NCBI GenBank assembly: GCA_963775795.1
Contig: CAVZKC010000004.1
Coordinates: 722,613 to 786,612 of the forward strand
From: an uncultured Actinomycetes bacterium
GTDB lineage: Bacteria; Actinomycetota; Acidimicrobiia; IMCC26256; DASPTH01
DNA length: 64,000 bases
Reading direction: 5' to 3'
Part shown: positions 19,776 to 58,226 of the stretch, one piece after another
Layout of the letters: every line of letters begins with the position of its first letter
How positions within the stretch are numbered: position 1 is the stretch's first letter
Translations under genes and position numbers: made by a program
The notes under the pieces: model-generated
Databases searched by the model: none
The model's input: the letters and a program-made list of their open reading frames with translations, nothing else
What the model was told of the DNA's origin: nothing

Positions 19776-20696
19776 TCAGTCCTCGTCCCCGTGGAACTTT
19801 GGAGCCTCGTGGTGCTGCCGCGTGCGGCGCTCGATCTCCTCTTCCTCGGCCAGGAGACGCTCCAGCTCGGGGTCGGCCTCCTTGACGAGCGGGCTCGACT
19901 CCTCGCCCACCTCGTCGGGCGCGGTCTCCACCGGCGCGGCCTCGGCTGCCGGGCGCCGCCGGCCCCCGCCGGCGCTGACGACCCGGCGCGTCGGGCCCTG
20001 GCCCGACGTCTCGCCGACCGCCATGGCGGCCTCCTTCGAGATCTTGTCCTCGGCCGCCGACTTGTAGGGCAGGATCTCGCCCTTGTAGATCCAGACCTTC
20101 ACGCCGATGCGTCCGAACGTCGTGCGCGCCTCTGCCTGGCCGTAGTCGATGTCGGCCCGCAGCGTGTGGAGTGGCACGCGGCCTTCGCGGTACCACTCCT
20201 TGCGTGACATCTCTGCGCCGCCGAGCCGTCCGCTGCACTGGACCCGGATGCCTTGCGCGCCGGCCTTCATCGCCGTCTGCACGGCACGCTTCATCGCCCG
20301 GCGGAACGAGACGCGCCCGGTCAGCTGGTCGGCGACCCCCTGCGCGATCAGGGTGGCGTCGAGCTCGGGCTGCTTGATCTCCTGGATGTTGAAGTGGATC
20401 TTCGGGTTCCCGGTGATCTTGAGCAACCCGGCCCGGAGGCGATCCGCCTCCGCGCCCCGCCGCCCAATCACGATCCCGGGCCGCGCGGTGTAAACGTCGA
20501 CCCGCAACCGGTCACGCGTGCGCTCGATCTCGACGCGGCTCACCGCGGCCCGCTCCAGCTGGCGCTTCAGGTAGTCGCGGATCTTCCAGTCCTCGATCAG
20601 GCTCGTGCGGTACTCGTCGTCCTCGGCGAACCAGCGCGACTTCCAGTCGGTGGTGATCCCGAGCCGGAAACCGTAGGGATTGACCTTCTGGCCCAT
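19776..20696 (-). CDS. rpsC: 30S ribosomal protein uS3 with a long acidic C-terminal extension
   Basis: ATG 20696 lies inside the 651-aa track ORF 19776..21731. [23 protein letters not shown] and [31 protein letters not shown] are present. About 90 extra residues end in [24 protein letters not shown]. Confidence 0.95.
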
Positions 20697-21356
20697 TAGT
20701 GCTCCGATCCTTCGGTCTCGGCGCGCTCGTCGTCCTCGTCCGAATCGGCGGAGGCCTCGGCTTCGTCGATCTCGACCTCGGCCGGCTGCTCCGCTTCGTC
20801 CTCGTCGTGCGCCTCGACGAGGACGTCGGCCTCGTCGAGCACCTGACTCGTGATCGTGATCGTGATCGTGATCGTGATCGTGATCGTGATCGGCCGCCGC
20901 GGCACGACGCGATGCGGCGACTCGACGCCGACGGCTCACGCGTGACGGGCCGCCGGCTGCTGCCTCCCGCCGGCGCCGCCGCTCGAGCTCGTCGTCGCCG
21001 AACCGAGCGACCATGATCGTCACGTGACTGGTGCGCTTGCGGATGCGAGTGCCGCGGCCACGCGCCCGGGGCCGCCACCGCTTCATGGTGGGACCCTCGT
21101 CAGCGAACGCGCGCGACACGTAGAGCTCGTCCTCCGGGATGGAGTCGTTGTGCTCCGCGTTCGCGATCGCCGAGTCGAGCAGCTTCATCACCGCGTCGGC
21201 GGGGCCACGCTCGCAGAACCGGAGGATCTCGCGCGCCTCCACGACGTCCTTGCCGACGATGAGGCCCAGGACCTGGCGCACCTTGGTGGGTGACGTCCGG
21301 AAGTGCCGGAGCCGCGCGGCAGTCTCGCGTTCGGGAGCGACGGTGCGAGTTGCCAT
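20696..21356 (-). CDS. rplV: 50S ribosomal protein uL22, with core and acidic tail in different frames as assembled
   Basis: ATG 21356 forms a TGATG overlap with the rpsS stop. Core sequence: [29 protein letters not shown]...[14 protein letters not shown]. The tail [15 protein letters not shown](IT)7SQVLDEADV...ETEGSEH lies in the +1 frame. It ends at TAA 20698-20696, overlapping the rpsC ATG (TAATG). Confidence 0.8.
20851..20892 (-). repeat. perfect hexanucleotide microsatellite (TGATCG)7, equal to (GATCAC)7 on the coding strand
   Basis: Counted directly: seven tandem TGATCG units with no mismatch, each holding a GATC site. It lies inside the rplV 3' extension. Confidence 0.97.
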
Positions 21357-24133: not shown

Positions 24134-24439
24134 GGTCGTTCCTGGTCTTGTCGTGCGGCGTCTTCGCGCGCTCTGCTCACGCGAACGCTCCGCCCGGTAT
24201 GGACCCGGCGGAGCGGTGATCGGTTGTGCCGTGCGGTTCTGCGGACGGGGCCGCAGCCTGCGCGGACGTCGGTTGACGAAAGGTTCCGGACGGGTGCCGG
24301 ACAGCTGGGGCACACCGGCGAGCCCCGAAAGACTAGCGGCTGCCCTTCCGGGCCGCCAAGCCGGTGGTGGCTCAGTTTGGGGGGATCAGCAGTCGCCCTC
24401 GTACTCGCTGACGCGGACCTGGTTCGGTTCCGGGCCGGT

Positions 24440-24470
<31 letters not shown>

Positions 24471-36059: not shown

Positions 36060-39539
<3,480 letters not shown>

Positions 39540-39662
39540 TCCTTGCTGAAGGCGCGCGCGGACAGGATCAGGAAGATCAGCGAGGGCACGGCCGGGCAGA
39601 CACGACTCGTCGGATCATATCGCGCCCGACGCCGTACCTGCAAGGAGGCGCCACGGAACAGA

Positions 39663-39714
39663 ACCCCGAGGGGCCCGTCGACCCGCGGAGGATACGACGA
39701 CTCACCCTCGGGGT
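39663..39714 (-). terminator. candidate attenuator/terminator hairpin between rplL and rpoB
   Basis: A 10-bp stem, ACCCCGAGGG (39663-39672) pairing with CCCTCGGGGT (39705-39714). On the minus strand it begins 20 nt after the rplL stop and is followed by UUCUGUUCC. The loop is long (32 nt) and may be sub-structured. Confidence 0.3.
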
Positions 39715-39733
39715 CAAGGCATTCGCGGCCCGT

Positions 39734-40126
39734 TTACTTGAGCTCGACGGTGGCGCCGGCTTCCTCGAGCTGGGCTTTCGCCTTGTCCGCATCCTCCTTG
39801 GCGACCTTCTCGAGGACCGGCTTCGGCGCGTTGTCGACGAGGTCCTTCGCCTCCTTCAGGCCGAGGCCGGGCACGAGCGCGCGCACCTCTTTGATGACCT
39901 GGATCTTCTTGTCGCCCGCCGCGGTGAGCACGACGTCGAACTCGTCCTTCTCTTCCGCGCCGGCGGCCGCGGCCTCGCCGCCGCCCGCCGCGGGAGCTGC
40001 CGCGACTGCGACCGGCGCGGCGGCCGTCACGCCGAACTCCTCTTCGAACGCCTTGAGGAAGTCGTTGAGCTCGAGCACGGTCATGTTCTTGAAGTGGTCG
40101 AGCAGCTCTTCGGTGGTGATCGCCAT
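39734..40126 (-). CDS. rplL: 50S ribosomal protein bL12 (L7/L12)
   Basis: ATG 40126 lies inside track ORF 39734..40828, with AGGAGAG 9 nt upstream. [33 protein letters not shown] and [25 protein letters not shown] are present. Confidence 0.96.
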
Positions 40127-40142
40127 GTTCTTCTCTCTCCTG

Positions 40143-40828
40143 TTACTCGGACTCGGACTCGGACTCGGATTCGGACTCGGATTCGGGGGTGGCTTCCGCC
40201 TCGGGGGCGGGCTCGGCCTCGGCGGCAGGTCGGGCTCGGCCTCGGCGGTGGGCTCGGCTCCAGCCGCGGGCTCGGCAGGTGCGGCAGCCTCGCCGCTCGC
40301 GACTCGCTGGTCGATCAGCGCCTGCACGCCGTAGGCGAGGTTGCGCGTGAACGCTTGGAACAGTCCCGCCGCCTTCGTGAGCGGCGCCTGGAAGGTGCCC
40401 GCGATCTGCGCGAGCAGCACGTCGCGCGGCGCCACGTCCGCCAGCGTGTCCAGCTCAGCTGCGGTGAGGACCCGCGACCCGAGGAGGCCCGCCTTGAGGA
40501 CGAGCGCAGGATTGCTCTTGCCAAAGTCCCGCAGCGCCTTCGCGGCCGGCACGGCGTCACCCCGCACGAAGGCGAGCGCCACCGGGCCCTCGAACATGCC
40601 GTCGAGACCCTCGACCCCGGCCTCGTCGATCGCCCGGCGCGCCAGCGTGTTCTTGAACACCTTGTACTCGGTACCGGTCGGGCGCAGGCTGGCGCGCAGC
40701 GCGGCCAACTCGGAAACCGTGAGGCCCCGATACTCGGTGAGCACGGTCGCGTCGGACTCCGCCAACTTGGCCCGGATCTCCTCGACGACCGCGACCTTGC
40801 CCGGTCTCGCGGCAGTTTCTCTTGCCAT
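40143..40828 (-). CDS. rplJ: 50S ribosomal protein uL10, with core and acidic (Ser-Glu)n tail in different frames as assembled
   Basis: ATG 40828. Core: [39 protein letters not shown]...[10 protein letters not shown]. The tail [28 protein letters not shown] lies in the -1 frame. It ends at TAA 40145-40143, followed by CAGGAGAGAGAAGAAC and the rplL ATG. Confidence 0.85.
40146..40187 (-). repeat. imperfect hexanucleotide microsatellite (CTCGGA)7, equal to (TCCGAG)n on the coding strand
   Basis: Units are ctcgga x4, ttcgga, ctcgga, ttcggg. It starts directly after the rplJ tail-frame stop codon and encodes (Ser-Glu)n in that frame. Confidence 0.92.
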
Positions 40829-40854
40829 CGGTCAAACGCTCCAGGAACGAGAAC

Positions 40855-40884
40855 GGGACGTCGCCGCAGACCGCGGGACGTCCC
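40855..40884 (-). promoter_or_regulatory. stable hairpin in the 182-nt rplJ 5' leader (possible L10-leader element)
   Basis: GGGACGUC-CCGC-GGUCU-GCGG-C-GACGUCCC: 8 + 4 bp with one bulge, 27-56 nt upstream of the rplJ ATG. The long leader (40829-41010) is where L10(L12)4 autoregulatory leaders lie in other bacteria. I cannot confirm the covariance model by eye. Confidence 0.3.
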
Positions 40885-41010
40885 TCAGAGCGGGCGCCTC
40901 ACCCGGCGGGCCCCGTCGGAACGACGGCTTCCATTACCTCGAAGAGACCGGGGGTCTTCGGCAGATTCAGTTGTGAAGGTGGAGGCTAGTACAGCGACCT
41001 CTGGCTGACC

Positions 41011-41718
41011 TCAGTGACCTTCCGCGTCGGCATGGGTCACGGTCGGGTCGATGCGCACGCCGGGGCCCATCGTCGACGACGCCGACGCGGACTTCAGGTA
41101 GCGGCCCTTGGCCGAGGCGGGCTTCGCCCGCATCAGCTCGTCGAGCACGGCCTGATAATTGGCAAGCAACTCCGGAGCGTCGAAGCTGGCCTTCCCGATG
41201 GGCACGTGGATGTTGCCGTAGCGATCCGTGCGGTACTCCACCTTCCCGGCCTTGAACTCCGCGACCGTCTTGCCCACGTCGTTGGTCACCGTGCCGGTCT
41301 TGGGGTTGGGCATGAGTCCCCGGGGCCCGAGCGTTCGACCGAGCTTGCCCACCTGGCCCATGAGGTCGGGCGTCGCGATCGCCACGTCGAAGTCGAGAAA
41401 CCCTCCTTCGACGCGCGCAACCAGGTCGTCCGCGCCGACCACGTCGGCGCCGGCGTCTTGGGCCTCGCGAGCCGCATCCCCCGTGGCGAACACCGCCACG
41501 CGCACGCTCTTGCCGGTTCCGTGCGGGAGCGACACCGTGCCGCGGATCATCTGGTCGGCCTTGCGGGGGTCGACCCCGAGCCGGAACGCAGCCTCGACGG
41601 TCTCGTCGAACTTGCGTGTCGCGAGCGACTTCACCAGCTCGAGCGCTTCCGTCGGGGTGTGGAGCTGCTCTCGGTCGAAGCGCTTCAGCGCGTCGTCGTA
41701 CTTCTTGCCGTGCACCAT
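41011..41718 (-). CDS. rplA: 50S ribosomal protein uL1
   Basis: ATG 41718 lies inside track ORF 41011..41973. [35 protein letters not shown] and [15 protein letters not shown] are present. Confidence 0.96.
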
Positions 41719-41809
41719 GACGTCCTCCCAGCCCAAAGCGGCGGTGACTCCCTCGGGAACACCTGATCCGGCGGCGAGGTCCTCCGCCGGGGTGTCGAAC
41801 TGCACGTAC

Positions 41810-42238
41810 TCAGTCGGTGACCTGGATCCCCATCGACCGGGCGGTGCCGACCACCTGCGCGACGGCACCGTCGAGGTCGATCGCGTTGAGGTCGGGCATC
41901 TTGGTCTGTGCGATCTCCCGCACCTGCGAGAGGGTGACGCTCCCGGCCACGTCGGTCCGGACGTTCTGAGCACCCTTCTCGATCCCCGCGGCCTGCCGGA
42001 GCAGGAACGGCGTGGGCGGTGTCTTCGTCACGAACGTGAACGAGCGGTCCTCGAAGATCGAGATCTCGGCCGGGATCACCAGCCCGCGCTGGTTCTCGGT
42101 GGCCGAGTTATAGGCCTTGCAGAAGTCCATGATGTTGATCCCGTGCGGACCGAGGGCGGTGCCCACCGGCGGTGCCGGGGTCGCCTGCCCGGCCGGGATC
42201 TGGATCTTCACGATCGCGGCGAGCTTCTTCTTCGCCAT
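41810..42238 (-). CDS. rplK: 50S ribosomal protein uL11
   Basis: ATG 42238 lies inside track ORF 41810..42304. [36 protein letters not shown] is present. Confidence 0.96.
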
Positions 42239-42377
42239 CTCTTTGCACTCGCTCTCTGCGAGCCGGGATACCCGGCTCGCGGTCGTTCGCTCGTTGGCGA
42301 GCAACTCGCCCGGCTTCGCCGGGCTCGTCGCCGCTCGCGTACGCCTCGTGGTTACTTCACCGTTGCTTGCGGACCTT

Positions 42378-43127
42378 CTACAGCTTTGCTACTTGGCCGA
42401 GCTCGAGCTCGACGGGGGTCTCACGGCCGAAGATGTTGACGAGCACCGTGAGTTTCGATCGGGCAACGTCGATGTCGGAGATCACCCCGTTGAAGTCGGC
42501 GAACGGCCCCGTCGTCACGCGCACCTGCTCGGCCACGTCGAACTCGAGGCGAGGGCGCGCCTTCTTCTCGGGGCGCTCCTCCTCTTTCCCACCGCTGCCG
42601 AGGACATCTTCGACCTCGCGCCGAGACAACGGGGTCGGACGAGCGCCGTTGCCGACGAAGCCGGTCACGCCCGGGGTGTTGCGCACGACGTACCAGGAGT
42701 CGTCGTCGAGGTCCATGCGCACGTACAGGTAGCCGGGGAACAGCTTCTTCTGCACCACGACCTTGCGGCCGCCCTTGAACTCGATGACGTCTTCCATCGG
42801 GATGATCACGTCGAAGATGCGCTCCTCGACGTTCATCGACCGGACGCGGCTGGCGAGGTTCTGCTTCACCTTGTTCTCGTAGCCCGCGTACGTGTGCACG
42901 ACGTACCACGCACCCGACTGGTCGAACGGGCTGGGCTCGCGCGGGGTGTCGTCGGCCTCCTCGACGATGTCGAGCAGCTCGGCGTCCGCCAGGCTGGGCT
43001 CGACGACGACCTCCTCCAACACGGCCTCGACCTCACCGTCGGCCTCGAACACGGCGTCCTCCTCGACGACCTCGGTCGACTCGATCTCGAGTTCGGGCTC
43101 ACTGTCAGAAGGGTTCAAGTCGTCCAT
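42378..43127 (-). CDS. nusG: transcription termination/antitermination factor NusG (acidic N-terminal extension)
   Basis: Track ORF of 249 aa. The NGN domain starts at [20 protein letters not shown]. The KOW region is [18 protein letters not shown]. Confidence 0.95.
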
Positions 43128-55540: not shown

Positions 55541-56737
55541 TCACGTACTCGCGCGGGTGCCGACCGAGAACACGAGCACCCGGTGCGCGCCGAGGCCGGC
55601 CGGGTCGAGGAGAGCCGCGGCCTCGCTGACACGGCTGCGATGCCGGAGCGCCTCCAGGTCGCCGACGTGCGCACGCTCGTCCCAGGCCGCGCGGGCCTCG
55701 TCGACGAGGTCGTCGATGCCGAGGCCGCGCAGCCAGTCCGCTTGCGATGCATTCGACTGGAGGGTCATGCCGGCGGTCGAAGCCGCGTGCACGAGGAACT
55801 CGACCGGCAGGTCGATCGTGATGTCCTGGCCACCAGGGTCGTCGAGCGGCGAGCCGCCCCGGTGGTGGCCCCGGTAGGTGCGGAGCCACCCGCTCACGCC
55901 CCGCTGCAGCAGTTCGGCGGCCGGAGCCGCGTAGTCGAGCACGATCAGCGCGCCGTCGCGCAGGATCTCGCCGCACTCCTGGAACCAGTCGCGCGCGGCC
56001 AGGGGAACTGGGAGGCGCGCGCCGACCGGCACCGCTTCCGCCCCCGCCGCCCCCGCCGCCAGGGCCGCCGCCACCTCGAGCTCGGGGGCGGCGGGCACCG
56101 TGACCTCCGAGAAGCCGCCGTCCTCCGACGCGACCCGCACCTCGGCCCAACCGTCCACCGTGCGCTCGACCACGCGGAACGGCAAGTTGTCGAGCAGCTC
56201 GTTGGCGAGCACGACTCCTGTGCACGCCACCGCCGGCAAGTCCGCGAGCGAGGTCGCGATCGGCCCGACACCGGTGGCGGGCGCCCGTCGCAGCTCGTCC
56301 CCCGGATCGTCGTCGGGATCGTGTGTCACCGGCCCCAGCGCGTCCTCGCCCGGCTCGAGCACGAGGAGCTCCCGCTGGGCTTCGCGGAGCTCGGCCGACC
56401 GTTCGACCAGTACGTAGCGCAGCGCGGGCGCGCACTCGGGACCCGCGGCGAGGAAATCGGCGGCCAGGCGGCCCCGGCCCGCGCCGGCCTCGACCACGAC
56501 GAACGGATCAGGTCGTTCGAGATCGCTCCAGACCCGATCGACCGCGCGGGCAACCAGTGCCCCGAACAGCGGACCGACCTCGGGGCTCGTGACGAAGTCG
56601 CGGCCCGCGCGTCCGGCGCCGTGCCCGCGCTCGAAGAAGCCGCCCGGTCCGTAGAGCGCGGTGTCGACGAAGGCGTCGAACGGGATCGCGCCCTCCCGCC
56701 GGATGCGCTCCACCAACAAGTCGGCGAGCGCGGTCAT
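55541..56737 (-). CDS. SAM-dependent methyltransferase, MidA / NDUFAF7 (DUF185, COG1565) family
   Basis: Track ORF of 398 aa with YGPGGFFERG, RDFVTSPEVGPLFGALVA and the SAM motif I VVVEAGAGRGRLAADFL. It is on the same strand as nuoN, 27 nt after its stop. Confidence 0.8.
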   Translation of the reverse strand: MTALADLLVERIRREGAIPFDAFVDTALYGPGGFFERGHGAGRAGRDFVTSPEVGPLFGALVARAVDRVWSDLERPDPFVVVEAGAGRGRLAADFLAAGPECAPALRYVLVERSAELREAQRELLVLEPGEDALGPVTHDPDDDPGDELRRAPATGVGPIATSLADLPAVACTGVVLANELLDNLPFRVVERTVDGWAEVRVASEDGGFSEVTVPAAPELEVAAALAAGAAGAEAVPVGARLPVPLAARDWFQECGEILRDGALIVLDYAAPAAELLQRGVSGWLRTYRGHHRGGSPLDDPGGQDITIDLPVEFLVHAASTAGMTLQSNASQADWLRGLGIDDLVDEARAAWDERAHVGDLEALRHRSRVSEAAALLDPAGLGAHRVLVFSVGTRAST

Positions 56738-56764
56738 CGTCCCGATCCAAACCGGACGGGTCGG

Positions 56765-58226
56765 CTACGCGGGGAACGCGAGCTCGCCGATGCGGGCGAA
56801 CACCTGCGGATAGACGCCGACCACGACCACCACCGCGGCGGTCAGGCCGAGCGCCACCGTGAGGGCTGCCGGCACGCGCACCGGGCCGGACTCGGCCGCC
56901 GGCTCGTGGAACCACATCTTGCGCGCCACCGCCGCGTAGTAGAAGAACGCGATGACCGAATTCACGGCCGCGACGACCCCGAGCACGACCGCCGGCGCGG
57001 TGTGCGCGTCGAACACCGCGCGGAACATCACGAACTTTGCGAACCAGCCGGCGAAGGGCGGTACTCCCGCGAGCGAGAACATGAAGATCGACATGAGCAC
57101 GGCCAACCCGGGCGCGGTCTGTGCCCAGGCCGGAGTACGAGTCGATCTCCGCCGAGTGGGTCCGGCGCGCCACCGCCATCACCACCGCGAACGCTCCCAG
57201 GTTCATCGCGCCGTAGATGAGGAGGTAGATGAGCACCGCTTCGAAGGCGGACTGCGCTGCCGACCCGTCACCCGCGACCGCGAGGGGAACGAGGATGAAC
57301 CCGCCCTGGGCGATCGAGGAGTAAGCGAGCATGCGCACGATGTTGGTCTGGCGCAACGCGACGAGGTTCCCGTACGTCATCGACGCGGCCGCCAGCACCC
57401 ACAGCATCGGCTCCCACGAGTCCTGCGACGGGAAGAAGCCCACCTTCACGATGGTGAGCAGCGCGACGAAGCCACCCGCCTTGGAGGCCACCGAGAGGAA
57501 GGCCGCCACCGGGGTCGGCGCACCCTCGTAGGTGTCCGGTGTCCAGAAGTGGAAGGGCACCGCGCTGATCTTGAAGGCGAAGCCGCCGATCGTGAGGAAG
57601 ATGGCCACGGCCAGTAGCGGGCTGGTGCCGACGTCGCGGATGTGCACGTTGATGGCGGTGAGGAGCGTCGAGCCCGCCTCTCCGTACACGAACGACATGC
57701 CGTAGAGCATCACCGCGGTGGACAGCACGCCGATCAGGAAGTACTTGATCGCGGCCTCGTTGGATTTCTCGTCGTGTTTGCGCCAACCGGCGAGCACGAA
57801 CGTCGGCAACGTGATCGTCTCCAGCGCCACGAAGATCGAGATCAGGTCGCGGGCCGACGCCATGACCACCAGCCCGAGCACCGAGGTCAGGAGCAGGAAG
57901 TAGAACTCGCCCTGGTAGTAGTCGCCTTCGCCGATGTAGTCGCTCGACATCAGGAGCGCGACGTAGGCGACCACGAGGAAGAAGCCCTGGAAGGCGAGGG
58001 CGTATTCGTCGACGACGAACCCGCCGTGGAACATCACGCGCGTCGACCCGTCGGCCGCGAGCGTGATCACCGGGATCAGGGCCGCGAGGACGCCGACGGA
58101 CGCGAGGCGCGACGACGCGAAACGCGACCGCTCCGGCCAGACGAGGTCGGCCACGAGCACGACCAGCGCCGCGACGGAGAGGATGATCTCCGGCGCGAAC
58201 GCGTGGAAGTCGATCGATGGAGTCAC
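56765..58226 (-). pseudogene. nuoN: NADH-quinone oxidoreductase subunit N, frame-disrupted as assembled
   Basis: GTG 58226 abuts the nuoM stop. Track ORF 56508..58226 is NuoN-like up to AEIDSYSGLG and then turns into Arg-rich nonsense. The missing C-terminal helices, (QTAPGL)AVLMSIFMFSLAGVPPFAGWFAKFVMF...VYPQVF, are in ORF 56765..57106. The junction is at about 57125-57135. Confidence 0.9.

Follow-up and report, generated by a model that had tools for sequence, protein, structure and literature searches.

A single missing base in a repeat-encoded acidic tail probably accounts for an apparent uL10–bL12 fusion in an uncultured member of the Acidimicrobiia

The locus described here has its nearest counterpart in the canonical bacterial rplJ–rplL (L10–L7/L12) operon. 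The two share the gene order rplK-rplA-rplJ-rplL-rpoB-rpoC, a Ribosomal_L10 core, a short spacer with a GGAG element, and a 130-residue bL12 with L12_N and L12_C domains, but differ at the C-terminus of uL10, which here bears an acidic extension of low complexity, about 50 residues long, with ESE at its end. Archaeal and eukaryotic P0 (uL10) is a stalk-base protein with a disordered acidic C-terminal extension that ends in a conserved motif. The Acidimicrobiia uL10 tail may be loosely likened to it; unlike the P0 tail, it ends in (S/T)ESE rather than in a hydrophobic motif of the GFGLFD type, and bL12 does not share it. Searching the literature for acidic extensions at the C-terminus of bacterial uL10 turned up nothing specific.

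The apparent change of frame within rplJ resembles two other systems. Programmed frameshift genes (prfB, +1; dnaX, −1) likewise have two overlapping open frames, both seemingly required for a complete protein, whereas rplJ here lacks both a slippery sequence and a stimulatory structure, and its shift is not conserved in relatives. Indel consensus errors in long-read (Nanopore-only) metagenome assemblies, where they break ORFs apart or join them, are matched by a one-base indel in a single assembly with intact frames in conspecifics, by frameshifts in nearby essential genes, and by a strong enrichment of frameshifted rplJ among Nanopore-only relatives. The locus departs from such errors in that the site is an imperfect, GC-rich, strain-variable tandem repeat and not a homopolymer, and the sequencing platform of the window (the whole 64,000-nucleotide stretch of DNA analysed here) may differ.

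In the window, rplJ is a minus-strand gene with its ATG at 40828; no stop interrupts its frame for 364 codons, until that of rplL at 39734. The original prediction had described ORF 39734..40828 (minus strand, 364 aa) as a uL10 core running without a stop into bL12, and this was borne out; the single ORF holds the Pfam domains Ribosomal_L10, Ribosomal_L12_N, and Ribosomal_L12. The uL10 core (codons 1–199 and the first base of codon 200; 40231..40828, minus strand) encodes protein 100% identical to conspecific uL10, with Ribosomal_L10 (PF00466) at residues 8–102 (E = 1e-26, 93 bits against a Pfam cut-off of 22.8). After the core, the 0-frame continues for 35 residues to the bL12 Met (M-AITTEELL) with no intervening stop. 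This spurious read-through (40127..40231, minus strand), basic and Pro-rich, lies in a noncoding frame.

The acidic C-terminal tail lies in the −1 frame (40143..40229, minus strand), where 28 codons are followed by a TAA at 40145–40143. Its (Ser-Glu)n part is encoded by a hexamer tandem repeat (40145..40186; seven copies, GAGTCC on the coding strand), the copy number of which differs in-frame among conspecific contigs, and its Ala/Glu/Pro-rich part by a degenerate 18-nt repeat (40183..40276; about 4.9 copies, 74% match). Between the TAA and the rplL ATG at 40126–40124 the sequence is CAGGAGAGAGAAGAAC, with a Shine-Dalgarno core GGAG (40137..40140, minus strand) 10 nt upstream of the ATG. rplL itself (39734..40126, minus strand) is a separate gene for a 130-aa bL12 (PF16320, 69.5 bits; PF00542, 103.5 bits). 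Its exact sequence is annotated as a separate 130-aa gene in a JGI contig (L081), and both L081 and a further contig (L094) have two separate gene calls for rplJ and rplL across the equivalent spacer, supporting the proposed stop, Shine-Dalgarno, and start layout. No Rfam match, to the L10 leader or any other RNA, was obtained in 39400–42400 at E ≤ 0.1.

Codon usage and homology placed the frame of the low-complexity tail, which a GC3 frame plot alone did not resolve. Codon counts confirmed that the 0-frame uses rare AGT and AAT codons and the tail frame preferred GAG, TCC, and GCC codons: in nine long genes of the window, AGT makes up 2% of Ser codons and AAT 4% of Asn codons, and the synonymous fraction has a geometric mean of 0.37 for the tail frame vs. 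0.18 for the 0-frame. Alignment to related rplJ tails had been proposed as a check, and 103 of the 120 closest uL10 homologues (P0001–P0120) end in ESE like the −1-frame tail (TESE in 57, SESE in 26). The tails of these homologues have a mean length of 50 aa, with 34% Asp+Glu and 0.25% Lys+Arg. The −1-frame tail fits this composition and the 0-frame does not, indicating that the −1-frame tail is the true conserved end of uL10. In more distant Acidimicrobiia (L059–L066 and L075), uL10 has no tail.

The comparison set for rplJ consisted of three conspecific contigs, 98–100% identical to the window: L081, together with L094 and L095, which were found because their neighbouring uL1 protein matched exactly. 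Each encodes an intact in-frame uL10 with an acidic tail, of 222 aa in L081, 214 aa in L094, and 235 aa in L095; L094 and L095 share one 14-residue C-terminal ending. The (Ser-Glu)n tail predicted in the −1 frame, with its TAA, matches these three tails nearly residue for residue. L081 carries the closest database protein (P0001, the 222-aa uL10), which is 99% identical to the frame-corrected window uL10 used as query. Over about 1.2 kb aligned, L081 and the window are identical across the uL10 core and rplL, and the differences are confined to the tail region: one G absent from the window, three substitutions, and 18 extra window bases corresponding to three in-frame hexamers of the Ser-Glu repeat.

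The absent G falls within the degenerate 18-nt repeat. L081 reads GAGCCCGA[G]CCTGCC, with the extra G between 40230 and 40229, and the window reads GAGCCCGA-CCTGCC, so that the frame changes at 40229..40230 (minus strand), where one G is absent between A40230 and C40229. The G-containing form in the conspecific contigs is GAGCCCGAGCCTGCC, and the window form without the G is GAGCCCGACCTGCC. Codon 200 in the window is GAC (40231–40229) where GAG followed by CCT is expected. With the G put back, uL10 has 228 aa, ends in ESE, and is collinear with its orthologues over the full length, which the uncorrected 0-frame is not. The four near-identical genomes thus have uL10 tails of four lengths (in uL10 proteins of 214, 222, 228, and 235 aa), all multiples of three, and among them the window is the only one with rplJ out of frame. 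An exact look-up of the 364-aa fused ORF returned no record in any other assembly, and scans of metagenome contigs for the site with the G, the site without it, and the rplJ–rplL junction gave 0 matches each.

On these comparisons of sequence, the locus is most likely an ordinary pair of rplJ, stop, and rplL, in which the window lacks one G through an assembly or consensus indel. In this lineage, uL10 carries an Ala/Glu/Pro-rich extension, roughly 50 residues long and ending in (S/T)ESE, that imperfect tandem repeats of 18 and 6 nt encode. With one G absent from the repeat region (40230/40229), the core in the window is displaced by one base from the frame of the tail that belongs to it. In the intact genes, the rplJ TAA and a spacer of 16 nt put the rplL ATG 19 nt beyond the first base of the stop, so that rplL is in frame +1 with respect to rplJ. 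The shifted GC-rich GAG/GCC/CCC/TCC repeats contain no stop, so a one-base deletion would be enough to give the stop-less 364-aa ORF. The apparent fusion would then arise because a one-base indel puts the core in the frame of rplL, a matter of arithmetic and not of design. The base was most likely lost by an error of assembly or consensus in a repeat that is of low complexity and varies between strains, and the real products would be a 228-aa uL10 and a separate 130-aa bL12. The separate-genes reading is right, and the locus is no novel feature.

From several observations we infer a technical origin of the deletion. Only one assembly has the indel, and in near-identical sequences the frame is intact; a single-base correction joining the core to the Ser-Glu tail had been named as the result that would speak against a real frame-change architecture, and the between-assembly comparison appears to supply it. 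At least two further frameshifts occur in conserved genes of the same contig, rplV and nuoN. In rplV (uL22; gene about 20696–21350, minus strand), comparison with contig L084 places the site at 20840–20860, where the window has 10 extra nucleotides, TCACGAGTCA, at 20853, corresponding to one 6-nt Asp-His unit plus 4 nt; L084 and the window are otherwise 100% identical over 3.85 kb. The rplV 0-frame runs into rpsC, with the true acidic tail, ending in ETEGSEH and a stop, in the other frame, and conspecific contigs encode intact uL22 proteins of 216 and 231 aa.

In nuoN (ORFs 56508–58226 and 56765–57178, minus strand), the window has an extra A at 57122 relative to contig L091, in the context GGCCTGGGC[A]CAGACC, which is neither a repeat nor a homopolymer. 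The Pfam domain Proton_antipo_M is split between the two frames, with domain positions 1–239 in one and 238–292 in the other. Exact look-ups of the window NuoM and of the ORF downstream of nuoN returned no record.

The original prediction had treated rplJ and rplV as sharing one architecture with a built-in frame change. This was not supported, as conspecific contigs carry each gene in a single frame. Nor are the two shifts alike: they run in opposite directions (−1 in rplJ, +1 in rplV), with one G absent from the window in rplJ and 10 nt added in rplV, and the third frameshift, in nuoN, is unrelated to either. The location of the rplJ and rplV frameshifts in tandem repeats that vary in copy number among co-occurring strains fits a hybrid consensus over mixed alleles, and would also fit a mutable site.

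A survey of related Acidimicrobiia, comprising 74 usable species-representative loci, compared 29 Microflora Danica genomes, which are Nanopore-only and were produced with Flye and one round of Medaka (PMC12313526), with the remaining 45. Frameshifted rplJ occurs in 11 of the former and 2 of the latter (Fisher p = 3.5e-4). Two Nanopore-only loci in the survey (L028 and L031) show the same uL10–bL12 read-through, with the acidic tail and stop in another frame.

Some features of the window count against an artefact. The window is much cleaner than the conspecific ENA contigs and is not generally error-ridden; the deletion lies outside any homopolymer, the classic context of long-read errors; and the tail is hypervariable between strains, so that a real mutation there is conceivable. 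The ENA contigs (L082/L088, L083/L089, L091, L094, and L095; contig_106812 and contig_51745) contain many one-base indels, which split rpoB, rplL, rplE, rplX, rplN, and nuoM. The window is intact at the same sites, indicating that it is the more accurate assembly overall. Comparison of the window with about 16 kb of same-strain JGI contigs showed no other out-of-frame indels.

Among the alternatives, the one that survives best, though we consider it unlikely, is that the one-base deletion is a real and recent mutation. A Pro/Ser/Arg-rich linker would then replace the acidic tail and join the core to one bL12, and free bL12 would be made from the internal Shine-Dalgarno sequence and ATG. Several findings are compatible with this: contigs that share 98% identity or more differ in the length of the tail repeats (giving the four uL10 lengths above), marking the region as mutable; the uL10 tail may be dispensable, being absent from the distant Acidimicrobiia; the window is otherwise free of indels relative to the JGI contigs; and the rplL ribosome-binding site is intact. 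However, a real mutation at rplJ would require three independent frameshifts (rplJ, rplV, and nuoN) within 64 kb, and contigs 99.9–100% identical to the window carry intact genes, a combination that we do not judge to be credible biology. Every natural length variant of the tail is a multiple of three, frameshifted rplJ tails associate with Nanopore-only assemblies, and the exact fused protein is on record from no other assembly. If the mutation were real, it would be a natural experiment showing that the tail can be dispensed with and that uL10 and bL12 need not be separate.

The other two explanations, recoding and a selected fusion, seem to us very improbable even when taken jointly. A genuine, selected fusion of the uL10 and bL12 genes, giving a covalently tethered stalk, could be read into the many database ORFs with both L10 and L12 domains and into the read-through shared by L028 and L031. 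Used as a query, the fused ORF retrieved dozens of such L10+L12 ORFs (P0121–P0204; 325–544 aa), mostly from long ENA contigs. However, those among the top 120 matches are all one-member clusters except P0183, and the linkers are Arg/Pro/Ser-rich in all 16 ORFs that were read, several of which have frameshifted cores too. These 16 linkers look like frameshifted acidic tails followed by translated intergenic spacer. In L028 and L031 the acidic tail and stop persist in another frame, and the conspecific genomes have two genes. Among the conspecific contigs and the database fused ORFs, we saw no in-frame fusion with a conserved linker that recurs across related, independently sequenced genomes. 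A selected fusion on its own is accordingly a highly doubtful explanation.

Least probable of all is recoding, by programmed −1 ribosomal frameshifting or transcriptional slippage, which would join the core to the tail and make both the tailed uL10 and the fusion purposeful: the layout alone speaks for it, with two overlapping open frames and a second core-plus-tail frame change in rplV, but the tail has no X XXY YYZ heptamer (the gene's single such heptamer, at 40589, belongs to the core), no homopolymer of at least six bases lies near 40230, the downstream RNA is no more stable than shuffled sequence (MFE −20.5 kcal/mol vs. a shuffle mean of −21.2, z = 0.26), the frame change is not conserved, being absent from 3 of 3 conspecific genes and essentially all short-read relatives, and rplV would require the opposite shift, +1. 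Phase variation through the hexamer repeat was also considered and rejected, as 6-nt units cannot alter the frame.

With an assembly or consensus indel as the preferred reading, the main value of the locus is as a caution: one indel is enough to make a ribosomal gene look convincingly fused, with no stop, to the ribosomal gene that follows. The caution applies to GC-rich Actinomycetota in which ribosomal proteins have acidic C-terminal tails encoded by repeats. Such ORFs are already numerous in public databases, and annotators and surveys of domain architecture should not take them for uL10–bL12 fusions. As judged from the 16 that were read, the database L10+L12 "fusions" are a recurrent annotation artefact in Actinomycetota.

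The underlying biology is modest but genuine. The uL10 tail is lineage-wide, with an almost invariant ESE end and a length that varies even among near-identical strains. A repeat-encoded acidic extension of uL10 with a near-invariant ESE end is less usual, and is a trait of the lineage, not of this window. The conserved ESE end on a hypervariable linker suggests a short motif that may be functional on the base of the ribosomal stalk.

Other low-complexity regions of the window were also recorded. The extension of the ribosomal protein uL22 contains a His-rich repeat, (Asp-His)n (about 20850–20900), whose copy number differs among contigs that are at least 98% identical: 6 in the window, 5 in both L083 and L084, and 13 in L082. 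The window uS3 and uL4 end in acidic tails too. Upstream of rplC (24365–24440), the window lacks 24 nt of (GCCGTC)n relative to L083 and has an additional ACC nearby; these differences are repeat-length variation between close strains, in-frame or intergenic. At the nusG N-terminus (43002–43091), NusG is acidic and of low complexity in the window, L094, and L095, where it has 249 aa, and the NusG of JGI contig L093 is 219 aa, its gene being 90 nt shorter there, an in-frame length polymorphism.
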